Assembly: GCA_050012475.1 (NCBI GenBank)
Contig: JBEKHC010000071.1
Location: 1 to 27,200 of the forward strand
Source: Candidatus Velthaea sp.
Lineage (GTDB): Bacteria > Vulcanimicrobiota > Vulcanimicrobiia > Vulcanimicrobiales > Vulcanimicrobiaceae
Length of the DNA stretch: 27,200 nt
Reading direction: 5' to 3'
Shown here: in pieces, positions 10,714 through 23,827 of the stretch
How positions within the stretch are numbered: position 1 is the stretch's first letter
How the letters are laid out: every line of letters starts with the position of its first letter
Translations under genes and position numbers: made by a program
The notes under the pieces: model-generated
The model's input: the letters and a program-made list of their open reading frames with translations, nothing else
What the model was told of the DNA's origin: nothing
Databases searched by the model: none

Positions 10714-10822
10714 GGTGTAGATGCTCTGATTTCGTCCTGGCGAGGAGCAAAGCGGCGAAGTTTGCTTCAGCAAATGAGCCGCGTAGCGACGACGTCCAGG
10801 GCGAAATCAGAGCATCTACACC
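10714..10822. mobile_element. 109-bp palindromic MITE/REP-like element with 27-bp terminal inverted repeats
   Basis: Left arm ggtgtagatgctctgatttcgtcctgg (10714-10740) and right arm ccagggcgaaatcagagcatctacacc (10796-10822) are 26/27 complementary, with an internal hairpin gcggc…tttgc-ttca-gcaaa…gccgc. The inverted repeat is certain; mobility is inferred. Confidence 0.6.
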
Positions 10823-11817
10823 CGGCGCCGCGAGGTTGCCGCGAACAAGGCGCGCAACAGGCGGTCGCGGTCGAGATCGTAGCGCAGCGCCAGATCGTCG
10901 GCTTGCGCGATCGCGCGATCGCAGGCTTCGTCGGCCGCGGCCTGCGCGCCCAACCGGTCGAGCGCCGCGATGACCGCCACCGCGTCGGCGTCGCTCAGCT
11001 CGCCGATGCGCGCGTAGGCCTTCTCGACGACGCTGCGATCGGCCGACGGTTTTCCGTCGAGCGCCCAAACGACGGGGAACGACCATTTGCGGCGGCGGAT
11101 ATCGGCGCCGCTGGGCTTGCCGGTCTCGGCCGTCGTGCCCCACGTGCCCAAAATATCGTCGCGGATTTGAAACGCCCGCCCGTACGCACGGCCGAATGCT
11201 GCGTACGCCAACGCGCGTTCGTCGCCGACGCCCGCCGAACGCGCGCCCAGCTCGCAGGCCGCCGAGAACAGCGCCGCCGTTTTGCCGGCGATCATGTGCA
11301 GGTAGTCGGCGAATGTCACGAATTGCGCGGTCTCGAAACCGATGTCGAGTCCCTGGCCCTCGCACATGTGGAAATTCGCGCGCTGCAAACAGCGTTCCAT
11401 CGCCACGCGCCGTCCGGCCGGGATGTCGGCAGCGCCCGAAAAGAGCGCCAAATAACTCATCGCGCACATCGCGTTGCCGGCGACGATGGCACTGGGAACG
11501 CCGAAGCGCACCCACAGCGTCGGCCGTCCGTGGCGAATCTCGTCGCGATCTTCGATGTCATCGTGGATGAGCGAGTAGTTGTGCAGTAACTCGATCGCGA
11601 TGGCGGGGCCGTCGGCGTCGCCGCCGCGCGCGCCTTCGGTCTGCGACACCATCAGCAGAATGTGCGGCCGCAGACGCTTCCCGCGGCGGCGGCCGGCTTC
11701 ACCGTACCCGAAGTGGGCGCGCACCATGGCGGCGATGGGCGCATCGCTTTGACAGCGCAGAATCCATTCTTCGAGGCGATCCTCGAAAGCGGTCAACGCG
11801 TCGGGTGCGAGCGCCAT
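10816..11817 (-). CDS. Short-chain trans-isoprenyl diphosphate synthase (FPP/GGPP synthase)
   Basis: GKRLRP, FARM HNYSLIHDDIED-x4-RHGRPT, GQGLD, GKTAALF, SARM FQIRDDILG. Last gene of the hpn minus-strand operon. Confidence 0.93.
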   Translation of the reverse strand: MALAPDALTAFEDRLEEWILRCQSDAPIAAMVRAHFGYGEAGRRRGKRLRPHILLMVSQTEGARGGDADGPAIAIELLHNYSLIHDDIEDRDEIRHGRPTLWVRFGVPSAIVAGNAMCAMSYLALFSGAADIPAGRRVAMERCLQRANFHMCEGQGLDIGFETAQFVTFADYLHMIAGKTAALFSAACELGARSAGVGDERALAYAAFGRAYGRAFQIRDDILGTWGTTAETGKPSGADIRRRKWSFPVVWALDGKPSADRSVVEKAYARIGELSDADAVAVIAALDRLGAQAAADEACDRAIAQADDLALRYDLDRDRLLRALFAATSRRRV

Positions 11818-11818
11818 T

Positions 11819-12838
11819 TTACTTCGAGAGCACCGACTTGAACGAAGACACGATGTTCTGCGGCCGCATCGAGTCGATCACCGCGGTCATCTCATAGCCC
11901 GAGTGAACCATGCAATCGGTGCATTTGGGGTTGCCGCTCTTTTGCCCGTACTTGGACCAGTCGGTCGTATCCAGATACTCTTGCCAGGTTTTCGCGTACC
12001 CCTCGCCGAGCAGATAGCATGGTTTCTGCCAGCCGAACAGCGAGTACGACGGCATGCCCCAGGGCGTGCAGTCGTAGTCTTTGTCGCCGATGAGGAACTC
12101 CATGAACAGCGGGCTGGCGTTGAACTCCCATTTCGTCTTGCCCGCGGTGTACGGCAGCATGATTTCGCGGAACAGCGCCTTGGTCTGATCGCGCTGCAGG
12201 AAATGCTCTTGATCCGGCGCCTTCTCGTATGGATAGCCGGGCGAGATCATCATGCCGTCGACTTTGAGTTCGTTGGTCGCGAAGTCGAAGAACGCTTGAA
12301 CGCGTTTGGGATCGGCGTCCTTGAAAACGGTCGTATTGGTCGTCACACGGAACCCGCGCGCCTTCGCAGCTTTGATCGCTTTGACTGCGACGTCGAAGAT
12401 TCCGGCGCGGTCGACGGCCTTGTCGTGTTCGGCCTGCAGCCCGTCGAGGTGCACGCTGAACGAGAAGTACGGCGACGGCGTGAACTTGTCGAGATTGGCT
12501 TCCAGCCGAATCGCGTTCGTGCACAGGTAGACGAACTTCTTGCGCGCGACCAGCCCGCGCACGATCTCGTCGATCTGCGGGTGCAGCAGCGGCTCGCCGC
12601 CTGGAATCGCGACAACCGGCGCCCCGCATTCGTCCGCCGCGCGAAAACATTCTTCCGGCGTCAAATGACGGCGCAAGACCTCGACGGGATGCTGGATTTT
12701 GCCGCAGCCGCTGCAGGCGAGGTTACAGCGGAACAGCGGTTCGAGCATCAGCACGAGCGGGAAGCGCTTTTTGCCCCGGACCCATTGTCCGATCAGGTAC
12801 GATCCGACACCGAATGCTTGTTGGAGGGAAATGGCCAT
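11819..12838 (-). CDS. hpnH: Adenosyl-hopene transferase, radical SAM protein HpnH
   Basis: [23 protein letters not shown] (CxxxCxxC), [55 protein letters not shown]. Clustered with shc. Confidence 0.96.
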
Positions 12839-12844
12839 GCGAGG

Positions 12845-13846
12845 TTACCGGTGGTCCTTTCGGGGCGAGTCGAGATAGCCGTGGTCTGAAAACCATTGGA
12901 CCGCATCGGCCAGCGCGACGGTTACATCGCTTTGCGGCAAGCCGAGGTCATGTACCGCTTTTCGCGCGTCATAGTACATCTGCCCCTTTGCCATCCGGAC
13001 GCTCTCCAGAGCGACATCGGGCGTGAAGCCCAAGGGCGCGAGCAAGTACTCGCCGATCGCCGCGTACGCCAGCGGAACGGCCTGGGGAACGCGAAAGCGA
13101 GGAACGGAGCGCTGCGTTATTTTTGCCAGCCGGACGAAGATCTCGCGCAATGGGAGATTGAGATTGCCCAAGATATAGCGTTCGCCGGCAACGCCGCGCT
13201 CGTACGCCAAGCGATGCCCGGCGGCGCAATCGCGCACGTCGATGAGATTGAGGCCGGTGTCGACGTACGCCGGCATGGCGCCGCGGGCAAAGCGCAGCAC
13301 GATCTCGCCCGTCGGCGTCGGCTTGACGTCCCAGGGCCCGATCGGCGTGCTCGGATTGACGATGACGACGTCCTGGCCGGCGGCAGCCGCTTCGCGCGCC
13401 ACCCGTTCACCGAGGAATTTGGATTTCTTGTAAACGCCGACCAGCTTCGCGTAGGGGCTCTGATAGGTTTCATCGGCGACGCCGCCGTGGCGGACCCCGA
13501 TCGCGGCGACCGAGCTGGTATACACCACCCGCGGCACGCCGGCTTCGCGCGCCGACCGCAAGACGTTGCGGGTGCCCTCGACGTTGGTGCGCAGCACGTC
13601 GTCGCGGTCGCGGCGCCATAAGCTGTAGCGCGCGGCGACGTGAAACACCGCGTCGCAGCCGCGCATCGCCGGCCCCAAATCCGGCGCGAACAGGTCGCCG
13701 GCGACGCTGGCGACGTTCAAGCCGGCGAGCGCGGGGGGTTCCGGCGAGCGCACCAGCACCCGGACCTGCCAATCGTGGGCCAGCAGATCGCGCACGACGT
13801 TCGCGCCGACGAAACCGGCGGCGCCGGTGACGAATGCCGTTTTCAC
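12845..13846 (-). CDS. hpnA: Hopanoid-associated NAD-dependent epimerase/dehydratase HpnA
   Basis: VTGAAGFVG, FHVAARY, YTSSVA, YKKSK, VNPSTPIGPWDVKPTPTG, MPAYVDTGLN. GTG overlaps the RND stop (GTGA). Confidence 0.92.
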   Translation of the reverse strand: MKTAFVTGAAGFVGANVVRDLLAHDWQVRVLVRSPEPPALAGLNVASVAGDLFAPDLGPAMRGCDAVFHVAARYSLWRRDRDDVLRTNVEGTRNVLRSAREAGVPRVVYTSSVAAIGVRHGGVADETYQSPYAKLVGVYKKSKFLGERVAREAAAAGQDVVIVNPSTPIGPWDVKPTPTGEIVLRFARGAMPAYVDTGLNLIDVRDCAAGHRLAYERGVAGERYILGNLNLPLREIFVRLAKITQRSVPRFRVPQAVPLAYAAIGEYLLAPLGFTPDVALESVRMAKGQMYYDARKAVHDLGLPQSDVTVALADAVQWFSDHGYLDSPRKDHR

Positions 13847-16323
13847 TGCTTGCGGTCCACGAACGTGTAGGCCACGGGGATCACCACCAAGCTCAAAACG
13901 GTCGAGGAAATCAGGCCGCCGATGATCGCGATCGCCATCGGGGCGCGCAGCTCGGATCCCGCGCCGAAACCGACCGCGATCGGCAGCATCCCCAAGATCG
14001 TCGCCGATGTCGTCATCACGATCGGCCGGAACCGCCGCGAGGCGGCTTCGAGAACCGCCGCCGCCCGCTCCATGCCGGCTCGCCGGCGCTGCACGATCGC
14101 GTCGACGAGCAGAATCGCGTTCTTGTTCACCAGGCCGAACAAGAAGATCACGCCCATGAGCGAGATGAGGCCGAAGTCGGCCCGCACGACGAACAGCGCG
14201 AAGAGCGCACCGACGACCGACAGCGGCAAGGCCACGACGATCACCAGCGGCGCGCGCCAGCCGCGAAACAACAATCCGAGCACCACGATGATGCTCAGGG
14301 TCGAAAGGGCCAGGGTTATTCCGAAGCTCCCGAAGGTCGTGATCGTGTCGCCGGCCTCCCCGGCGAAAACATAGCGCGCGGTCTTGGGCAGGATGGCCCG
14401 CGCGATGGCGTCGACGCGCGCGGTGGCATCGCCGATATTGACGCCGACGAGGTCGGCGTCGACGTAGACGACCCGCTTGGCACCCTCGCGGGTGATCAGG
14501 GTCGGAATCCCGTGGGCGAACGTCAGCCCCCCGGCGCTGACGTCCACGAAGCCCTTCTGACCGGTGAGGCGCCGCGCCAACTGCTCGGAGGCGCGCTGCA
14601 AGACCGTCAGCTGCGGATCGGAGACCGTGATCCGCAGCGGCTTGGTCACCCCGTTTTCGACGAACGGCACGTCTTCGACGCTCGTGGTCGCATTGGCCAG
14701 TGGAGGAAGCATCGCGCGGACGCGGTTCTCGACCACGATGGTGGGCGCGCTGCGGTCGTGCTTGAGGGTCACGGCCAGGGTCGCGACCGCCGGGTCGCCG
14801 CGATCGCCGACGGCCGCGAGGACCGTTGCGACATCGGCGTCGCGGCGGATCACGGCGTCGATGCTCTCCGCGTCGGTAATCGCGTCGTGAACCGGCGTTG
14901 GGCCGGCATTGTTGAGCCGGATGGTGACCTGGAATTGGCCGCGATCGAGGTGCGGGATGAAGCCCTTGGGGATGAGGGGGATGATCGCGAGGCCGATCAG
15001 GAAGCTCACGACCGCGCCGCTGACGATCACGGCGCGATGGCGCAGCGACCAGCTCAGGGCGGCGGCGTAGAGCCGCGGCGCGGTCCGTTCGCGCGGATCG
15101 CGCCCCGAGGGCTTGAGCAGATACGCGGCCAGCATCGGCGAGAGCGTCCGCGCGACGGCCAGCGAGGTGAGGACGGCGACCGAGGCCGTCAGCCCGAACG
15201 GCCGAAAGAACTGGCCGAGGGTGCCGGTCATGAACGCAATCGGCAAAAACACCGCGACGATGGTGAGCGTCGCGGCGGTCACCGTGAGCCCGATTTCGTC
15301 GGTCCCTTTTTCGGCTGCCACCCGCGGCGTCTCGCCGCTCTGGATGTGGCGTTCGATGTTCTCGACGTCGACGATCGCGTCGTCGACGATTACTCCGGTC
15401 ACCAGCGTGAGCGCTAAAAGCGTGATGGTTTCCAGATTGAAATGGAACAGCGCCATCGCGATCGCCGTCCCCGCGAGTGAGACCGGGATCGCAATGGCCG
15501 AAATGAACGTCGCCCGCACGTCGCGCAGAAAGGGGAACACCACCAGCACCGATAGCGCCATCGCGATGCCCAGCGCGTCGGTCGTGGCGTGCGAAGCTTC
15601 GCGAATATACGGCGCCTGCGTCGCGGCGATCTCCAGTGGAATGCCCAGCAGCGCGCGGACCCGCGCCGCGACGACGTCGACGGCGGCAGCGACTTCGAGC
15701 GTGTTCGCGCCGCCTTTTTTGACGATGCGGATCATGATCGCACGCTGACCGTTGAGCCGCACCGCCGTGCTCTTGTCGGCACCGATCAGATCGGCGCGCA
15801 GCACGCCCGGAACCGCCTTGAAGGCCGGCACCGCGTCCCGGAACAGAATTCCGGCGTCGACGAGCAGCTTGACCTCGTCGTCGCTGGACTCCGCGTACGT
15901 TGCGACCGGGATCGCATTGATGTCGATCGACGTTGCTTTGATCGTTGCGCCGGGCGGAATGGGTCCGCGCGCGAGCAGCGCGTCGACGGCGGCGCGGCGC
16001 GCCTCGAGCGTCCCGCCGACGTCGAACGAGAGCGCGATCGAGGTGCGGCCGGGCTTCGAGGTCGAGCGCATGAGCGTCGAACCTGCCGGCGCCAGCACGC
16101 GTTCGAGCGGAATGGTGAGCCGCGCCTCGGTCGTGCGCGCATCGGGCTGGCCGCCGATGGCGGCGTCGACGACGATGAGCGGAATCGAGAAATCCGGGAG
16201 CAGCGTATACTTGAGCGAAGCGAAGGCGAAGCCGCCGGCAATGATGATGAACAGCCAGACGGCAGCCGTAACGATCGCGAATCGAATCGCGATTCGCGAA
16301 ATGTTAAAGCGTGAGCGCAGCAC
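13843..16323 (-). CDS. AcrB/AcrD/AcrF-family RND permease, shortened (826 aa); candidate hopanoid transporter
   Basis: TM4 GVIVDDAIVDVENI, TM10 GLVNKNAILLVD, TM11 RFRPIVMT, FLPIAFM-x-G-x2-GQFFRPFGLT and PMAIAIIGGL. Both periplasmic loops are short. Confidence 0.9.
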   Translation of the reverse strand: MLRSRFNISRIAIRFAIVTAAVWLFIIIAGGFAFASLKYTLLPDFSIPLIVVDAAIGGQPDARTTEARLTIPLERVLAPAGSTLMRSTSKPGRTSIALSFDVGGTLEARRAAVDALLARGPIPPGATIKATSIDINAIPVATYAESSDDEVKLLVDAGILFRDAVPAFKAVPGVLRADLIGADKSTAVRLNGQRAIMIRIVKKGGANTLEVAAAVDVVAARVRALLGIPLEIAATQAPYIREASHATTDALGIAMALSVLVVFPFLRDVRATFISAIAIPVSLAGTAIAMALFHFNLETITLLALTLVTGVIVDDAIVDVENIERHIQSGETPRVAAEKGTDEIGLTVTAATLTIVAVFLPIAFMTGTLGQFFRPFGLTASVAVLTSLAVARTLSPMLAAYLLKPSGRDPRERTAPRLYAAALSWSLRHRAVIVSGAVVSFLIGLAIIPLIPKGFIPHLDRGQFQVTIRLNNAGPTPVHDAITDAESIDAVIRRDADVATVLAAVGDRGDPAVATLAVTLKHDRSAPTIVVENRVRAMLPPLANATTSVEDVPFVENGVTKPLRITVSDPQLTVLQRASEQLARRLTGQKGFVDVSAGGLTFAHGIPTLITREGAKRVVYVDADLVGVNIGDATARVDAIARAILPKTARYVFAGEAGDTITTFGSFGITLALSTLSIIVVLGLLFRGWRAPLVIVVALPLSVVGALFALFVVRADFGLISLMGVIFLFGLVNKNAILLVDAIVQRRRAGMERAAAVLEAASRRFRPIVMTTSATILGMLPIAVGFGAGSELRAPMAIAIIGGLISSTVLSLVVIPVAYTFVDRKQ

Positions 16324-16354: not shown

Positions 16355-17392
16355 TCACGACTGGCCGACGAAAACGAACGGCCGGCTGCGCACGCGTTCC
16401 ATGAGCCAGCGCAGCGTCGTATTGCTCAACGTCGTGGTCGAACCCGCCAGTATGAGTGACTTGACCTCACTGCGGGTGATCTTCACGCCGCCGCCTGAGA
16501 CGAGCATCTGTTCGCTGTGCTTGAGCTCGCGCAGCGTCGCGGCGGCAAACACGATCGGGAGAACGCAGAACAGCCGAATGCGCATCGCCGCCGGCGGGAT
16601 TTCGCTGACGTAGGCGAGCGCCTCATCGAGATCGGAGTCGGCGAGCGAGACAAGCGACTCGAGCGCGATGCGGTTATTGGCACGCAGCGCTGGATCGAGC
16701 AGCGAATCCTGACCGCTGCCTGCGGATTCGAGCAGGTCGCGCGGAATGAACACCGCGTTCTCGTGTTCGACGTCCCAGGGAATGTCTTTGAGGATGTTCA
16801 CCGTTTGCAGCGCTTCGCCGAAGGCCTCGCAATTGGTCAGCAATTTGGCATACGTCCGAGCCCGGACAAACGGCGAGTGCGCGTGCCACAAATCGGTCAG
16901 CAGATGACCCACGGTGCCGGCCACGAAATAACAGTAGCGCTTGAATTCGGCCATACTTTGGATCCGGATCCCGTCCGGATAGTCTCGCACGAACCCCTGC
17001 ATGCCCACGGTCATCTCGCTGACCCATTCCTGGATGATGCGCCGCGAGCCCGGATCGAGCGAACGATATGCCCGAAACACCAGGGAACTGCCGTCCAGAA
17101 GCTCGCGATCGGCCACGCTCATGCCGGCCCCGCCGGCGTCGGCGGCATAGCGCTCGGCGTCGTCCGCGTGCGCGAAGCAGACCCGGAATTGCTCGAGAAG
17201 CGCAAGCTTTCGGCCGGGCGCTAAACCGCGATCGTCCTCAATGGTGTCGGCGATGCGGCACAGCAGATACCCGATCGTTATCGGATCTTCGAGCGCCCGC
17301 GGAAGTAGACGGATGCCTAACGCAAACGTCCGCGAGACGCGCGGCAACATTGCGGTACAAAACCGATTTTCATTGACGACCGTTTCCACCAC
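16355..17392 (-). CDS. Squalene/phytoene synthase family protein, most similar to single-enzyme squalene synthase
   Basis: VSRTFAL flap, YLLCRIADTIEDD, YCYFVAGTVGHLLT, FGEALQTVNILKD, RLFC. First gene of the hpn operon. Confidence 0.88.
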   Translation of the reverse strand: MVETVVNENRFCTAMLPRVSRTFALGIRLLPRALEDPITIGYLLCRIADTIEDDRGLAPGRKLALLEQFRVCFAHADDAERYAADAGGAGMSVADRELLDGSSLVFRAYRSLDPGSRRIIQEWVSEMTVGMQGFVRDYPDGIRIQSMAEFKRYCYFVAGTVGHLLTDLWHAHSPFVRARTYAKLLTNCEAFGEALQTVNILKDIPWDVEHENAVFIPRDLLESAGSGQDSLLDPALRANNRIALESLVSLADSDLDEALAYVSEIPPAAMRIRLFCVLPIVFAAATLRELKHSEQMLVSGGGVKITRSEVKSLILAGSTTTLSNTTLRWLMERVRSRPFVFVGQS

Positions 17393-17482
17393 CCTACGGG
17401 TTTAGTCGGTTTCTTGCCGCGACCTGCCAAATGGCGCGATCAGCCGCAGGAGCGCATCGACAAAAATCGCAGAATATCGCGC

Positions 17483-18376
17483 ATGAAAATCGGAACATCG
17501 GAGCATCGCGAGCTCTTCTGCCAAACGTTTGTCGAAGGCCACATCGCTTACGAACCGGAGATGTTACCGTGGCCACAGCTCGAGCAAAAATATCTCGATC
17601 GCCTGCGCGCAATACCGTTCTGGGGAATTGCAAAAGCAATGGAGCGTAAGGCTGGGATCATGGTGTCCGCGTTTGCGCAGACCTTGGACGACCCCGCGAT
17701 TCGCGAGGCCGTGGCGCTGCAGGGAGCCGAGGAAGCGCGTCACGCCCGATTGATGGCGCACTTCATCGAACGTTACGGCCTGACGGCGCGCGAGGTCGAC
17801 GTTCGCGCCGGCGATCCCGTGAAGGAACAATTCGTCGTCTTCGGCTACGAAGAATGCGTTGATTTCTTCATGGGCGCGGGGCTCTTCCGTTTGGCCACCA
17901 AACTCGATATCTTCCCCGCCGACCTCGTCGCGATCTTCGACCGGGTACTGGTCGAAGAGGCGCGGCACGTCACCTTTTTCATCAACTGGTTCCGTTACGA
18001 AGAAGCCCGCGCCGGCCGCGACGGGACCCTGGGGCGGCATCTCATGGCGATCAAGAATTACTTCGGCTCGATCAAACAGTTGGTGCGCTCGTTCAGCGGC
18101 GAAGAGACGACGGGGTTCGTGGCGGCCAGTGCGAATCAACTCGTCGAAGGGATGACGCCGGTGATGTTTCTCGAGGCGGCGCTCGCCGAAAACCGGCGAA
18201 TGCTCGGACTTCTCGATCCTCGTCTGATCAAGCCGGCGCTGCTTCCCACGCTTGCGGCGACGGCGTTGACCGTGTTGCGGGCGCTCCCGCCCCGCCGCGA
18301 GAACCCGGCTGTGCCGGCCGCGCCGGCGCAACCGCAAGCGCAATCGCATTCGCTCAACAGGAGTGTTGCCGCCTAG
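17483..18376 (+). CDS. Ferritin-like diiron-carboxylate protein of unknown function
   Basis: 297 aa from ATG 17483, with E54…E84-A-R-H87 and E124…E159-A-R-H162 (two ExxH motifs). Ends 14 nt before hpnP. Confidence 0.82.
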   Translation: MKIGTSEHRELFCQTFVEGHIAYEPEMLPWPQLEQKYLDRLRAIPFWGIAKAMERKAGIMVSAFAQTLDDPAIREAVALQGAEEARHARLMAHFIERYGLTAREVDVRAGDPVKEQFVVFGYEECVDFFMGAGLFRLATKLDIFPADLVAIFDRVLVEEARHVTFFINWFRYEEARAGRDGTLGRHLMAIKNYFGSIKQLVRSFSGEETTGFVAASANQLVEGMTPVMFLEAALAENRRMLGLLDPRLIKPALLPTLAATALTVLRALPPRRENPAVPAAPAQPQAQSHSLNRSVAA

Positions 18377-18390
18377 ATGAACGCCGTTCG

Positions 18391-19953
18391 ATGCCGCTGA
18401 CGCCGCGTAACGTGCTGTGCGTGTTTCCGCGCTACAGCCCATCGTTCGGCACGTTTGAGTACGCCTATCCGCTCGTCGGCGTGAGCGGCTTCATGCCGCC
18501 CCAGGGGTTATTGGTCATCGCCGCCTCGATGCCCAAGTATTGGAACGTTCGCTTCATTGATGAAAACATCAAGACCGCCAGCCGTGCCGACATGGCCTGG
18601 GCCGACGTCGTCTTCGCCAGCGGGATGCACATCCAGCGCCAGCAAATCGTCGACATCACGAACCGCGCGCATGTCGCCGGCAAGGTCGTCGTGTTGGGCG
18701 GGCCGTCCGTTTCGGGGGCGCCGGAAACCTATCCCGACGTCGACATCCTGCACATCGGCGAACTCGGCGACGCGACCCGCGCCCTCTACGAATACCTCGA
18801 AAACGACGTCAGCCGGCCGGAACGGCAATTGCAATTCGTGACGGTGGAAAAGCTGCCGCTCGAAGCGTTTCCCACGCCCGCCTACGAGCTCATCGACCTG
18901 CGCCGCTATTTTCTGGGCAGCGTGCAAGCAACCAGCGGCTGTCCCTACCGTTGTGAATTTTGCGACATCCCGGAGTTGTACGGGCAAAATCCGCGGCTGA
19001 AAACGCCGGATCAAATCGTGCGCGAACTCGACGCGATGCTCGCCCGCGGCAACCCGGGTTGCATCTACTTCGTCGACGACAACTTCGTGGGGAACCGCAA
19101 GTTCGCCAAAGAACTCTTGCCCAAACTCGTGGATTGGCAAAAAAGGCGCGGCTATCCGGTGGAGTTCGCCTGCGAAGCCACGCTCAACATCGTCAAGAGC
19201 CCGGATCTGCTGGCGATGATGCGCGAGGCCTATTTCACCACGATCTTCTGCGGTATCGAAACCCCTGATCCGGAGACCCTGCACGCGATTTCAAAAGATC
19301 AGAACCGGAGCGTCGGGCTGCTCGAGGCCGTTCAGACGCTCAACTCCTACGGGTTGGAGGTCGTCAGCGGAATCATCATCGGTTTCGACACCGACACATC
19401 CGACACGGCCGATCGCATCATCGAATTCATCGAGCAGTCAAAGATCCCGCTGCTGACGATCAATCTGCTGCAAGCGCTGCCGCGCACGCCGCTGTGGCGC
19501 CGGCTCGAAAAAGAAGGCCGGCTCTATCACGGCGACGACCGCGAAACCAATATCGAGTACGTGCTGCCGTATGACGAAGTGCTCGGCATGTGGCGCAAGA
19601 CGATTGCTGCCGCATACTCACCCGAGGCGCTGTACGAACGCTTCCGTCATTTCGCAGAATACACGGCTCCGCACCGCATCACGCCGCCCAACAGCGGCGC
19701 GCGCGTCAATCCGCACAACATCCGCCGCGGGCTTACGATCCTGTTCAAAGTCCTCACGATCGTGGGCATCTTCTCCAACTATCGCAAGACGTTTTGGAAT
19801 CTCTGTGGACCGATGCTGCGCCAAGGACGCATCGAATCGCTGCTGCACGTCGGCATCGTCGGGCACCATCTCATCACGTACGCGCGCGGCGCGCTGTCGG
19901 GCCGTTTCAACGCCTCGCATTACTCCGCGCGCACGCGCAAGAAAGCCGCGTAA
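18391..19953 (+). CDS. hpnP: Hopanoid C-2 methyltransferase HpnP (B12-binding class B radical SAM)
   Basis: LCVFPRYSPSFGTFEYAY, FMPPQGLL, SGMHIQR, LGGPSVS, LHIGELGDAT, SGCPYRCEFCDIPELYG, YFVDDNF, FACEATLN, LTINLLQALPRTPLWRRL. Adjacent to shc. Confidence 0.88.
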   Translation: MPLTPRNVLCVFPRYSPSFGTFEYAYPLVGVSGFMPPQGLLVIAASMPKYWNVRFIDENIKTASRADMAWADVVFASGMHIQRQQIVDITNRAHVAGKVVVLGGPSVSGAPETYPDVDILHIGELGDATRALYEYLENDVSRPERQLQFVTVEKLPLEAFPTPAYELIDLRRYFLGSVQATSGCPYRCEFCDIPELYGQNPRLKTPDQIVRELDAMLARGNPGCIYFVDDNFVGNRKFAKELLPKLVDWQKRRGYPVEFACEATLNIVKSPDLLAMMREAYFTTIFCGIETPDPETLHAISKDQNRSVGLLEAVQTLNSYGLEVVSGIIIGFDTDTSDTADRIIEFIEQSKIPLLTINLLQALPRTPLWRRLEKEGRLYHGDDRETNIEYVLPYDEVLGMWRKTIAAAYSPEALYERFRHFAEYTAPHRITPPNSGARVNPHNIRRGLTILFKVLTIVGIFSNYRKTFWNLCGPMLRQGRIESLLHVGIVGHHLITYARGALSGRFNASHYSARTRKKAA

Positions 19954-21854
19954 CGGCCCAGTGCCGTCAGCGGGAAGTGCTGACAATACAGGTGGTAGCG
20001 GAGAAAAAAGTGCTGCGGAAAACCCGTGCCGGTGAACTCCGCTTCGTCCCACGTCCCATCGGCGCGCTGCTGGGTGAGGAGATGGGTGACGCCACGCTCG
20101 AGGGCGGGCGCGAATTCGGCACGTAGCCGCGGCAGCCGTTCGACTGTCGCCAGCACGCCGATGAGCCCCCACGCTGTTTGCGAGGGCGTGCTCGCGCCGC
20201 TGCCCCGCAATTCAGGGTGCTTGTAGCTCGCGGTCGTCTCGCCCCACCCGCCGTCGCGGTTCTGCACGCTGCGCAGCCACAGCGCACCGCGCACCAGCGC
20301 CGCTTCGATGGCCGCTCCGCCGGGGGTCGCACCAAGGGCAGCCAAAGCACCGCTGGTGCCGTACACGTAATTTACGCCCCAGCGCCCGAACCACGCACCG
20401 TCGGGCTCCTGTTCGGCCAGCAGATAGGCGAGCGCGCGCGGAAAGCGGTCGCCCTCCCAGGGCAACGCGCAGCGGGCAAACATCTCCATCACCCGCGCAG
20501 TCACGTCGGCGGTCGGCGGATCGATGCTTGCTTTGAGGTCGCTGTACGCGATGCGATTGATCCACGCCTTATCGTTGTCGATATCGAAAGCACCCCAGCC
20601 GCCGCCGCGGCACTGCATGCTCGCGACCCACTGCGCCGCGCGTTCGACCGCGGCCCGGCTGCGGGCCGGCTGCGGATGCGCGACCCCGTGGAGCGCCATG
20701 GCGATGACCGCCGTATCGTCGACGTCGGGATACCAGCGGTTGTCGAACTCGAAAGCCCAGCCGCCGGGCGGTCCGCCGGGATTCTTGATCGCCCAGTCGC
20801 CGTAGTCGAGAATCTGCTTTTCGAGCAGCCAATCCACGGCGCGCACCAGGCGCGGATCGTCCGCGGCCACCCCCGCATCGACGAGCGCGCGCACCGCGAG
20901 GCCGGTATCCCAAACCGGCGAAATGCAAGGTTGGACCCGGTACGCGCCGTTTTCAGCGATCGTAAACGTGTCGATCGCCGCGAAACCGCGCACGACCTCC
21001 GGATCGTCGAGCCGATAGCCCAACGCACGCAGCGCGAGCATCGAATTGAGCATCGCGGGGATGATGCCGCCCCAGTCGCCGGTCGCCTCTTGGCGCTCGA
21101 GCACCCAGCGCTCGGCGCGCGCCAGGCCGGCCGCGCGTCCGGGCCGGACACCGTACCGCTCGCCGAGTTTGAAAAGCGTGTCGAGCCCGTTGAACGCGGC
21201 TTCGACGGCATCGTTCGGGGGCGGCAGGGCATATTGCACGTTGCCGGCGCCTTCGGCGTACAATTCGTCGAGGTCGAGCACCGGACCGTACACGGGTTTC
21301 TGGTCGAAGACGATGATGAGCGGCACGGTGCTGCCGCGCGCCCAGCTGGAAAGATCGTAAATCGAAAAGATTCCGCGCTCCGGCAACAGCATCAGAAACG
21401 GCGGCAGCGACGGCAGGCCGGCCCAATCATAGGCGCCGACGAGCGCCAGATGCATTTTGGTGAAAATGCGCGTTTTTGAAATGCCGCCGCGCGCTAAAAT
21501 AAACGCGCGCGCACGCGCGAGCGCCGGATCGTCGTGGCCAACGCCCAGCAGCCGCAGCGCCATGTACGCCTCGACGGTAACGCTGAGTTCGCCGCCGTCG
21601 CCGTAGGCCAGCTCCCAGCCGCCGTGATCGCGCTGCTCGCCGCGAAAATAGCGGACGGCCGCGGCACGCGGTACGCGCGCGAAGCAATCCCAGATGTGGT
21701 GCAGCAGCACGACTTCGGCGGTGATCGTGACGTTGGACTGTAGCTCTGCCCACCAATAACCAGTCGGATGTTGGGTTGAAAACAACGCGTCGACCGCGCG
21801 CGCGATTGCGCTTTCGAGGGGTCGCGCCGGTTCGGAATCCGAAACGGCTTGCAT
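19920..21854 (-). CDS. shc: Squalene-hopene cyclase
   Basis: Catalytic YPDVDDTA (DxDD), QW repeats (QRDHGGW, QEATGDW, QCRGGGW, QEPDGAW, QNRDGGW, QRADGTW), QPCISPVWDT, RWGVNYVYGT, FTGTGFP. Start is ATG 21854 (MQAVSD…) or up to 21890. Confidence 0.97.
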   Translation of the reverse strand: MQAVSDSEPARPLESAIARAVDALFSTQHPTGYWWAELQSNVTITAEVVLLHHIWDCFARVPRAAAVRYFRGEQRDHGGWELAYGDGGELSVTVEAYMALRLLGVGHDDPALARARAFILARGGISKTRIFTKMHLALVGAYDWAGLPSLPPFLMLLPERGIFSIYDLSSWARGSTVPLIIVFDQKPVYGPVLDLDELYAEGAGNVQYALPPPNDAVEAAFNGLDTLFKLGERYGVRPGRAAGLARAERWVLERQEATGDWGGIIPAMLNSMLALRALGYRLDDPEVVRGFAAIDTFTIAENGAYRVQPCISPVWDTGLAVRALVDAGVAADDPRLVRAVDWLLEKQILDYGDWAIKNPGGPPGGWAFEFDNRWYPDVDDTAVIAMALHGVAHPQPARSRAAVERAAQWVASMQCRGGGWGAFDIDNDKAWINRIAYSDLKASIDPPTADVTARVMEMFARCALPWEGDRFPRALAYLLAEQEPDGAWFGRWGVNYVYGTSGALAALGATPGGAAIEAALVRGALWLRSVQNRDGGWGETTASYKHPELRGSGASTPSQTAWGLIGVLATVERLPRLRAEFAPALERGVTHLLTQQRADGTWDEAEFTGTGFPQHFFLRYHLYCQHFPLTALGRYAAFLRVRAE

Positions 21855-21867
21855 GTCCTCGAAGTTC

Positions 21868-23085
21868 GTGCGAATCATTTCGCTGCTCATGGTTGGCGGC
21901 TGGACCGGTTTGCTCGTGGCACGCGGACGATTTTGGGATCCGCCCGCCGACTGCCTTCGCGAGCCCGACGAATCGTCCGGCGCGCCGGACGTTCACGTCG
22001 TCATTCCGGCCCGCAACGAAGAAGCGCTCATCGGCGAAACGCTGCCGACGCTGTTCGCGCAGCGCTACGCGGGCCGGTTGGACATCACCCTCGCCGACGA
22101 CAACAGCGACGACGGGACGGCCGCGCGCGCGCATTGGCTCGCTACCGAATCCGGCAGTACGAAAAATTTTTCCGTCGCGACGGTCCCGCCCCGCCCGGAA
22201 CTTTGGGCCGGAAAAGTTTGGGCGATGGCGGCGGGCGTCGCGGCAGCCCGCGCGGCCGGCGCGCAGCCCGAGTATTGGCTCTTCACCGACGCCGACATCC
22301 GTCATGATCCGACCAGCGTCGCCGCGCTCGTGGCGACGGCGCGCGCCGATCGGCGCGATCTCGTTTCGCTGATGGTGCAATTGCGCTGCACGAGCGCCTG
22401 GGAACGCCTGATGATCCCGGCGTTTGTCTTTTTCTTCGCGAAACTGTATCCGTTCGCATGGGTCGCCGACGACGCGCGCAGCACGGCGGCAGCCGCCGGC
22501 GGCTGCGTGCTCGTCTCGGACCGCATGCTGCGCGCGATCGGCGGGTTCGAGCGCATCGCGGGCGCGCTCATCGACGATTGCGCGCTCGCCGCTGCGGTCA
22601 AATCCGAAGGCGGCCGGCTGCGGCTCGAGCTTTCGAGCAAAGCGCACAGCATCCGCGCCTACGATTCGCTGGGCGTCCTGTGGGACATGATCGCGCGCAG
22701 CGCCTACACGCAACTGCGCTTCTCCCCTTTGCTGCTGGCAGGCACGCTCGCCGGCATGATCGTGCTGTACGCGTTGCCGCCGATCGCAGCGGTCGCCGGA
22801 GTCCTTCGGCGCGATAAAGTGCTCGGCCTCAGCGGTGCGCTGGCATGGTCGATCATGAGCGCGTTGTATCTCCCGGTGCTGCGCCGCTACCGTCAGCCGG
22901 CCGCAGCCGCCGTGCTGCTCCCGCTCGCCGCGATGGTCTACACGCTCATCACGCTCGACTCGGCCCGTCGCCACGCGATCGGAAAGGGCGGCGAATGGAA
23001 GGGCCGGCTGCAGCCTGTCGCCGACGGTCATGCCGAAAGCACGCTGCGGCCGGACCGATTTTTCACCGCAGCGCCGCCGGTATAA
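21868..23085 (+). CDS. hpnB: Hopanoid-associated GT2 glycosyltransferase HpnB
   Basis: N-terminal TM ending RGRFW, VIPARNE, DDNSDDGT, WAGKVWA, FTDADI, IPAFVFFFAKLYPF, AAAGGC, LIDDCALA, WDMIARSAYTQL. Start is GTG 21868 or ATG 21853. Confidence 0.9.
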   Translation: MRIISLLMVGGWTGLLVARGRFWDPPADCLREPDESSGAPDVHVVIPARNEEALIGETLPTLFAQRYAGRLDITLADDNSDDGTAARAHWLATESGSTKNFSVATVPPRPELWAGKVWAMAAGVAAARAAGAQPEYWLFTDADIRHDPTSVAALVATARADRRDLVSLMVQLRCTSAWERLMIPAFVFFFAKLYPFAWVADDARSTAAAAGGCVLVSDRMLRAIGGFERIAGALIDDCALAAAVKSEGGRLRLELSSKAHSIRAYDSLGVLWDMIARSAYTQLRFSPLLLAGTLAGMIVLYALPPIAAVAGVLRRDKVLGLSGALAWSIMSALYLPVLRRYRQPAAAAVLLPLAAMVYTLITLDSARRHAIGKGGEWKGRLQPVADGHAESTLRPDRFFTAAPPV

Positions 23086-23188: not shown

Positions 23189-23827
23189 CTAAGCCGCGGC
23201 TAGCCGGGCCGCGGTCGAACGCAGCACGGTCAGCGCTCGAACGACGTGGCGAACGAAGCGCAGGCTGCGGGCCGGACTACGAACGAGCGCAAGGGTCAGT
23301 GCCAGCGGCCGCAGCGCACCGTCGCGATCGTAGACGTTGCTCAGATCCGGCATGGAGCCGAGCGCGTCGTCGCTGACGATGCGCACCATCGCTACCCGGA
23401 CCCCGCGCCCGTGCAGTACGCGGGCAATCGACGCGGCCTCCATGTCGATCGCCGCGGCGCCGGTCGCCGCTCGCAGCGCCGATTTCGCTGCCGGTTCACC
23501 GACCACGCTCGCGACGTTGGCGGCGCCAACTGGCACGACCGCGCAGACGGCCGCGCAGGCCGCGGCCAGCTCACGGTCGAGTTCGATGACCTCGGCACCG
23601 TCGGCGATGCGCGCATAAACGACCGTGTCGCCGACGCGCAACGCCGGATCGAGCGCACCGCACACGCCTAGGACGAGCGCCGTTGCGGGAACGGGGCCCG
23701 AAGCGAACTGCGCGCCGGCACCGCTGCCCGCAGGCACGCTGCGCAGAATCGCGCGCGCTTCCGGCCAGCCGCGTTCAACGGCGCTCGCTTCCGCACCGCG
23801 CGGAACGATGATCGCATCGAAGCGCAC
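23189..23827 (-). CDS. hpnG: Hopanoid-associated nucleoside phosphorylase/nucleosidase HpnG
   Basis: PNP_UDP fold motifs LGVCGALDPALRVGD, K-x2-L-x3-TGAAAIDME and RIVSDD, with N-terminal VPRGAE. Within the hpn cluster. Confidence 0.85.
   Translation of the reverse strand: MRFDAIIVPRGAEASAVERGWPEARAILRSVPAGSGAGAQFASGPVPATALVLGVCGALDPALRVGDTVVYARIADGAEVIELDRELAAACAAVCAVVPVGAANVASVVGEPAAKSALRAATGAAAIDMEAASIARVLHGRGVRVAMVRIVSDDALGSMPDLSNVYDRDGALRPLALTLALVRSPARSLRFVRHVVRALTVLRSTAARLAAA

Follow-up and report, generated by a model that had tools for sequence, protein, structure and literature searches.

A ferritin-like di-metal protein family located recurrently in hopanoid gene clusters: in all likelihood an addition to the accessory hpn genes, and a candidate for an oxidative tailoring step

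The window, which is the whole contig of 27,200 nucleotides that was analysed and belongs to the 94% complete genome G000, carries a hopanoid gene cluster arranged in three blocks. The first, on the reverse strand, begins at the cluster end with a polyprenyl (FPP/GGPP) synthase recognised by domain match (10816..11817), and continues with hpnH, coding for adenosylhopane synthase (11819..12838; TIGR03470 over cut-off), hpnA (12845..13846; TIGR03466 over cut-off), a short AcrB-type RND transporter distinct from HpnN (13843..16323), and a single-enzyme squalene synthase-like gene, SQS (16355..17392; Pfam SQS_PSY, with TIGR01559 the best NCBIfam match, below cut-off). The second, on the forward strand, comprises a gene coding for a ferritin-like di-metal-carboxylate protein of 297 amino acids (17483..18376), the product and family of which are referred to as FLP, and hpnP, coding for the hopanoid C-2 methylase (18391..19953). 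In the third lie shc, coding for squalene-hopene cyclase (19920..21890, reverse strand; TIGR01507 over cut-off), the hpnB glycosyltransferase gene (21853..23085, forward strand; TIGR03469 over cut-off) and an hpnG-like nucleoside phosphorylase gene (23189..23827, reverse strand; TIGR03468, below cut-off). The FLP stop codon lies, as the earlier note had it, 14 nt from the ATG of hpnP; the divergent SQS gene lies 90 nt upstream of FLP. Among named organisms, G000 is closest to Ca. Velthaea and other Vulcanimicrobiota/Eremiobacterota. No hpnI, hpnJ or hpnK family match was obtained in G000, nor any tblastn match for hpnL or hpnN. The RND gene of ~826 amino acids between hpnA and SQS (window 13843-16323) is kept in this cluster type (L129, L130, L139, L140), and a gene resembling it adjoins FLP in L046; this short transporter is possibly an alternative hopanoid exporter.

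The identification of 18391..19953 as HpnP is supported by sequence comparison, and is rendered credible by the presence of the three HpnP domains (B12-binding, radical SAM and DUF4070) together with 57% identity over 99% of the length to a gene that lacks annotation on a replicon of Methylobacterium bullatum; the other 14 among the matches listed exhibited 33-38% identity. In the accessible part of Hoshino 2023 (PMC10697835), Eremiobacterota sequences fall in the HpnP clade. The hpnP and shc genes are direct neighbours in the window, their 3' ends overlapping by 34 nt, are adjacent also in G292, G239 and G291, and lie within ~9 kb of one another in G162, G293 and G215. The adjacency in the window lineage is therefore a counter-example to the statement, in that same part of Hoshino 2023 (PMC10697835), that shc-hpnP synteny is found in no phylum. 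RNA contigs from three runs of one study cover parts of FLP, hpnP and SQS, none of them bridging the FLP-hpnP junction, and a search for a sigma-70-like promoter match returned none.

Assignment of the FLP gene was based on an ORF translation free of stops, on the ligand columns and on the predicted fold; the start is the MKIG methionine seen in homologs, an in-frame TTG being present also at 17414. The ligand set of which the earlier note had spoken (E54, E84xxH87, E124 and E159xxH162) was located at precisely those positions, the ExxH motifs at 84 and 159 being the only two in the protein, and E83, R86, D127, E158 and R161 constituting the second shell. All six ligands were invariant in 44 close homologs and in 38 diverse sequences, the latter a set hand-picked as full-length and mostly ligand-intact. 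They were intact in 572 of 596 domain rows, redundant rows included, these being the rows out of 687 with all six ligand columns filled and taken without ligand-intact selection. That degree of conservation in the close homologs and the domain rows indicates that the motif is not a product of chance. The remaining 24 of the 596 rows represent paralogs devoid of the full ligand set, including a clade mostly keeping the five second-shell residues. Ten ligand-less rows form one clade with a support of 1.0, and the paralogs concerned (P0161, P0166, P0167, P0170, P0174, P0187, P0190, P0191, P0201, P0243 and P0253) mostly possess the second-shell residues; by analogy with monooxygenase beta chains, they are possibly non-catalytic partner subunits.

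Clustered at 50% identity, the sequences found by a profile search comprised 860 FLP representatives at E<=0.001, among which fragments were frequent, and 145 at 1e-30; the names returned by the homolog search included Massilia and Stellaceae. The only match in a Pfam scan was DUF455 (E=0.009, below cut-off), and an NCBIfam scan gave no match. Judged on sequence, FLP is a real family of apparent di-metal proteins that lacks a curated Pfam or NCBIfam counterpart.

Two AF2 models of FLP were in agreement (pLDDT 90.6 and 92.3), and when compared with PDB folds were best matched by R2, R2lox and bacterial multicomponent monooxygenase subunits (Z 13-15, 6-14% identity, rmsd ~3.6-4.3 over ~200-235 residues), although Z values of 13-15 are about the level that the tool describes as common for helical proteins. 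A Foldseek search with the model gave no match at E<=0.001, acyl-ACP desaturases and PDB 2j2f being among the weaker rows; a phmmer search against the PDB returned nothing below E 0.8 (DesA2, E=1.3), and the best PDB sequence-profile match was a MiaE-like protein (E=0.029). In the Atlas, PF03405 clusters first occurred at rank 12. The models display a four-helix bundle with E / ExxH / E / ExxH ligands, and this predicted four-helix site of two His and four Glu within an R2/R2lox-type fold places FLP in the ferritin-like di-metal carboxylate superfamily.

Comparison with the known members of that superfamily revealed both likenesses and differences. Among 543 unique intact FLP domains, G121 was kept in 542 and D127 in 538, and position 91 was occupied by L, M, I, V or F, never by Tyr; because it lies four residues beyond the first of the His ligands, we take position 91 to be equivalent to that of the R2 radical Tyr. 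The candidacy of FLP as a class I ribonucleotide reductase R2 was rejected on that absence of a radical Tyr and on the lack of any Pfam or NCBIfam R2 match at E<=0.01. The overall fold is nevertheless common to R2lox (4hr0, 7qbp, 3ee4) and to class Ic/Ib R2 (4d8g, 6y2n, 1uzr), with Z 13.7-15.1 and rmsd 3.6-4.3 over ~218-232 residues, and the same comparison extends to Glu as the first ligand and to the lack of a Tyr at the R2 radical position; according to the models, FLP has the R2-type fold without the radical Tyr by which R2lox is distinguished, R2lox being known also for a Tyr-Val ether cross-link and a fatty-acid channel. By way of contrast, identity to these R2lox and R2 structures amounted to only 10-14%, no nrdA neighbour was seen, the genetic context is that of hopanoid clusters, and FLP possesses extra basic amphipathic helices.

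The soluble acyl-ACP desaturases (2uw1, 1afr and DesA2, 1za0) have twin (D/E)ExRH-type motifs, presumably the class motif of these enzymes and of monooxygenase hydroxylases, and FLP has EEARH twice; bacterial multicomponent monooxygenase hydroxylases (2inn, 1t0q, 1mhy, 1fyz) were among the fold matches. O2-dependent C-H chemistry is the analogy proposed with both groups. FLP differs from the desaturases in having no match to Pfam FA_desaturase_2 (PF03405), and from both groups in that its recurring neighbours include neither an ACP nor a reductase or regulatory subunit. The MiaE-like and aldehyde-deformylating-oxygenase-like proteins (5ux1, 8fhb, 5ux2, 5uwz) provided the best profile match, a value (E=0.029) that is not significant; entries with ADO activity matched the FLP fold at Z 10.6-11.9, FLP is ~70 residues longer with extra helices, and none of the MiaE, ADO or Coq7 family models in Pfam or NCBIfam matched it.

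The C-terminal segment LLPTLAATALTVLRAL is predicted to form a helix at 253-267 and is amphipathic, in accord with the earlier description of it. Both this helix and that at 182-205 are amphipathic, with family-median net charges of +2 and +3, respectively, and a transmembrane anchor was rejected because the best 19-residue Kyte-Doolittle mean (1.32) is too low to span a membrane; two basic amphipathic helices and no membrane span would therefore suggest binding to the membrane surface. Conservation extends to small and aromatic residues in the vicinity of the ligands.

In a phylum sample of 301 genomes, FLP was detected in 126 with a single-protein search, a few matches being fragments, and in 125 with a profile; 125 of the 126 carriers belong to family f1. 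When searched at E<=1e-100, shc was present in 219 of the 301 genomes (a tally that includes the unpublished G233) and in 118 of the FLP carriers. Seven of the eight carriers below that threshold have shc in pieces, and G071 has FLP without shc, but hpnI and hpnK over cut-off. With fragments counted, shc sequence thus accompanies FLP in 125 of 126 carriers in this one-phylum sample, and not one of the 125 family-f1 carriers is without it. Of 82 f1 genomes without FLP, 50 had a full shc match and 32 did not; as shc in these 32 was scored on full matches, the contrast between carriers and non-carriers is overstated to some degree, and because related genomes are not independent a p-value for the association is omitted. 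Coordinates of both genes were available, among the matches listed, for 91 of the 126 carriers, on a common contig in 73 and on different contigs in 18; with one FLP copy counted per genome, the two genes were no more than 15 kb apart in 66 of the 73 and far apart in seven. Homologs are accordingly strongly enriched near hpn genes and in shc-positive genomes, the absence of which enrichment the earlier note had set in advance as grounds for refutation.

The association is that of an accessory rather than a core gene. In genus g4, at one and the same cluster edge, FLP is present in L119 and L122 and absent in L120, L121 and L134 with the core undisturbed, a pattern from which it is apparent that FLP is an accessory hopanoid gene, like hpnB, hpnL and hpnM in hpn clusters. 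Family f20 had shc in 16 of 16 genomes and FLP in none of the 16, and in genus g2 FLP occurred in 18 of 19 genomes and hpnP in 0 of 19, the usual order being SQS-FLP-shc. Two types of hopanoid cluster occur within one family (L119, L122 and L133 vs the window), with FLP attached to both: type 1 has the single-enzyme SQS and an shc clade of ~58-82% identity to that of the window, and type 2 has hpnC/D/E and another shc clade at ~42-48%. The g4 hopanoid cluster is also flanked by an ORF containing an MBOAT acyltransferase (L119:6125-8827; L120-L122, L134), a candidate gene for acylated BHT, and in FLP-negative g4 loci a true ferritin-domain gene (PF00210), different from FLP, adjoins hpnA (L120:5949-6509 and L134:16628-17320).

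The association extends to other phyla. A metagenome set, found by FLP patterns alone and annotated by neighbour clustering plus a scan of cluster representatives, comprised the best 80 of 588 confirmed matches, a few of these 80 being Vulcanimicrobiota-like. An hpn neighbour was present in 48 of these 80 loci, three of which rest only on a weak hpnG-like label (~30% identity), against a background of 0.46% in random 16.8-kb windows of G000. When considered alone, loci of at least 5 kb included 30 of 48 with an hpn neighbour, the other 18 counting against the link. The neighbours in the 80 loci were hpnL (24), hpnK (9), hpnG-like (9), hpnJ (8), hpnN (8), hpnH (7) and shc (7). The arrangements were diverse: hpnI/hpnJ-FLP-hpnK in cyanobacteria-like loci (cluster mates named Prochloraceae and Cyanobacteriota), FLP-A/FLP-B-hpnL in Stellaceae-like loci, hpnK-hpnJ-sulfotransferase-FLP-hpnN and hpnN-FLP-ispH-hpnH-hpnG-shc elsewhere, and FLP-hpnB-hpnA-ispH-hpnH-hpnN in Cupriavidus metallidurans. 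Different FLP clades adjoin different hpn genes, six of the seven context-defined clades examined having SH-aLRT values of 93-100 and the Burkholderiaceae clade 53. Three of the four Burkholderiaceae loci examined (B. cenocepacia, B. multivorans and Caballeronia) had no hpn neighbour, which counts against the link; in its favour, shc was present on 11 of 13 FLP-bearing PLSDB records, all from Burkholderiaceae and hence not independent. With its recurrent location in hpn clusters across phyla and, in the phylum sample, in shc-bearing genomes, FLP has the attributes of an accessory hpn gene and very probably is a new one.

Three further observations concern FLP neighbourhoods. A clade with a support of 100 lies outside the hpn cluster near an opposite-strand hydantoinase/oxoprolinase gene (L084, L090, L101, L103, L104, L115, L128 and L138), and the two whole genomes examined, G293 and G105, have shc and hpnP elsewhere. 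The stand-alone FLP of B. cenocepacia is situated ~1 kb upstream of the gene for a trimeric autotransporter adhesin of 2742 amino acids (L035:13788-22013). In five loci (L098, L099, L106, L109 and L111) a sulfotransferase-family gene (Pfam Sulfotransfer_3) directly precedes FLP, the pair standing among hpnK/hpnJ and/or an hpnN-like gene; it is a candidate gene for sulfated hopanoids.

Duplicated copies offer some guidance as to function. FLP stands directly beside hpnJ in G045, G145, G283, G202 and G281, and an extra copy lies beside hpnJ in G121, G201 and G230, which are all three of the hpnJ-bearing g2 genomes. An obligate link to the HpnI/J/K cyclitol-ether route was rejected, hpnJ being missing from 61 of 126 FLP carriers and FLP from 20 of 85 f1 hpnJ genomes. 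The extra copies suggest that FLP is specialised by head group, which would accord more readily with chemistry on the side chain than on ring B. The family includes two paralogs, A and B, with 34% identity in L056. They are found either as tandem genes or as fusions, and both clades keep the ligands; 84 two-domain hits were recorded, of which 82 were at least 540 amino acids long. The A+B fusions of ~580 amino acids (P0280-P0363; L062, L079, L085, L086) include two cases named from Stellaceae, and tandem and fused loci usually have hpnL next. A heterodimer prediction for the L056 pair scored 0.00 and gave no answer, weighing neither way. The existence of two paralogs fits pentol plus hexol formation, and fits Δ6 plus Δ11 desaturation as well.

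The copy in the window may be a special case. Position 128, which we liken to A171 of R2lox, is Ser in 476 of the 543 intact domains and Phe in the window subclade (42 rows, each sharing 65% identity or more with the query); it lies one turn after ligand E124, and by that analogy F128 could close a pocket. The lack of hpnI and hpnK matches in G000, G292 and G162 weakens the head-group argument for the window copy, and the absence of hpnI/J/K from G000 together with F128 implies that its substrate may differ; a simpler hopanoid substrate, a different chemistry or a closed pocket may each apply.

The accessible part of a 2025 survey (PMC12583986) states that no genes are known for either pentol/hexol formation or Δ6/Δ11 unsaturation and that no candidates turned up near hpn clusters; it records BHpentol mostly as a cyclitol-ether derivative (16 species), and it already offers a sterol-desaturase-family candidate for unsaturation, which counts against FLP as a desaturase. 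In PMC8560942, some features in B. cenocepacia, of which a different strain carries FLP, bear annotations of pentol and unsaturated cyclitol ethers. A BHpentol cyclitol ether is present in the phototroph Rhodopila LVNP, which was cultured under both anoxic and oxic conditions; the portion of PMC8590665 available leaves the growth mode unstated, and an O2-free route may therefore exist.

The earlier claim that no ferritin-like protein figures among the named hpn genes (hpnA-P, R and X, with the proposed hpnS and hpnT, with which FLP has clusters in common) was upheld, there being none in Table S2 of PMC12583986. The word 'ferritin' has 0 occurrences in the text and eight supplements of that survey, and likewise 0 in the main text, as distinct from tables S3, S7 and S8, of a synteny preprint (10.1101/2025.07.29.667474). 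According to that main text, the preprint grouped neighbours by domain annotation, a basis on which the FLP family, being largely without such annotation, offers little to group. The family is not named in the accessible parts of PMC6460317, PMC13459092, PMC5462960 or 10.1101/2025.07.29.667474, and a literature search, the scope of which left out most subscription papers, returned no paper apparently tying a ferritin-like protein to hopanoids or hpnP, and under diiron proteins a paper on membrane desaturases.

It is apparent from its recurrence beside hopanoid genes in several phyla that FLP is, on genomic evidence, a good candidate for an unassigned hopanoid oxidation step, and an accessory role as an oxidative hopanoid-tailoring enzyme seems probable. 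As to the reaction, hydroxylation of the side chain at C-31, converting BHT into bacteriohopanepentol, and then at C-30 (hexol) by a repeat of the reaction or by a paralog, is the tentative choice; a ring desaturase (Δ6/Δ11) is fairly unlikely, and another hopanoid oxidation quite improbable. On the best reading, side-chain C-31/C-30 hydroxylation stands slightly ahead of Δ6/Δ11 desaturation. In its fullest form, with the family acting as an O2-dependent bacteriohopanepolyol C-31/C-30 hydroxylase and the deeply split A/B paralogs performing the successive pentol and hexol steps, the proposal is somewhat more doubtful than C-31/C-30 hydroxylation as such. Mechanistically, FLP would dock on the inner face of the membrane, where its Fe2 (or Mn/Fe) site would be reduced by a general ferredoxin or flavodoxin, a choice suggested by the lack of a conserved redox partner among its neighbours; the di-metal site would then activate O2 and attack an unactivated C-H bond in an extended hopanoid by hydrogen abstraction. 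Since hpnI/J/K were not found in G000, the enzyme there would act on BHT, on a glycoside made by HpnB or on an intermediate preceding these.

Three alternatives merit consideration. The first, unlikely overall, is that FLP is associated with hopanoids without tailoring them, whether as an R2lox-like lipid-binding oxidase, a carrier, a sensor or a membrane-surface O2/peroxide reductase, the last retained alongside hpn genes owing to a common function in stress. R2lox is indeed among the top folds, and no conserved ferredoxin or reductase recurs beside FLP; D127 is a carboxylate at ligand+3, a position at which a carboxylate occurs also in rubrerythrin and in the desaturase mutant T199D (PDB 2j2f); and the ligand-less paralogs and the F128 of the window subclade also accord with such a role. 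However, FLP is placed inside operons between tailoring genes (hpnJ-FLP-hpnK, FLP-hpnL), its duplicates track the hpnJ island, and small as well as aromatic residues near the ligands are kept; the operon placement and the hpnJ-island duplicates fit membership of the pathway better than generic stress co-regulation.

Oxidation of a non-hopanoid substrate (another isoprenoid, a quinone or, MiaE-like, a tRNA) by an enzyme hitch-hiking with isoprenoid genes has little probability. It would accommodate the MiaE-like best profile match, the stand-alone FLP copies, and the presence beside FLP in some clusters of SQS, an FMN-dehydrogenase-family gene (probable IDI-2) and ispH, but the commonest neighbours, hpnL, hpnK, hpnJ and hpnN, serve hopanoid head-group formation and transport rather than general isoprenoid metabolism, and shc sequence is lacking from none of the 125 f1 carriers.

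The third alternative, an O2-protective or activating partnership with the Fe-S/B12 enzyme HpnP, had been raised in the earlier note together with a special tie between the two genes, and the distribution of hpnP does not bear that tie out. A close hpnP (61-87% identity, G000 itself apart) was present in 21 f1 genomes, eight other genomes having HpnP-like sequences at 34-39%, and 19 of the 21 carry FLP, but only in four of these 19 (G000, G292, G239 and G162) are the two adjacent, and 107 of the 126 FLP carriers have no hpnP match. G291, from the genus of the window, has the same cluster including hpnP without FLP, leaving a gap of only 322 nt between SQS and hpnP, and G063 and G293 are similar, with SQS and hpnP divergent and no FLP between them. 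The adjacency of FLP and hpnP is local to the lineage and incidental, and the partnership, which the same-strand spacing of 14 nt and the 19 of 21 genomes had favoured, was rejected as highly improbable on this co-occurrence, on the natural deletions typified by G291 and on the one Methylobacterium replicon that has shc and a close hpnP homolog without FLP.

Hopanoids, which are major lipids of membranes, are also molecular fossils, and for their oxidative tailoring the FLP family constitutes a concrete and widespread candidate; with its natural presence/absence pairs and cultured carriers, among them Cupriavidus metallidurans CH34 and Cyanothece PCC 7425 (UniRef B8HV31), the question is a testable one. 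If FLP is indeed a C-31/C-30 hydroxylase, it would be the first example of a ferritin-like enzyme with a pentacyclic triterpenoid as substrate, and penta- and hexa-functionalised hopanoids would become gene-predictable oxygen markers; if the step needs O2, its products would leave redox information in the rock record.
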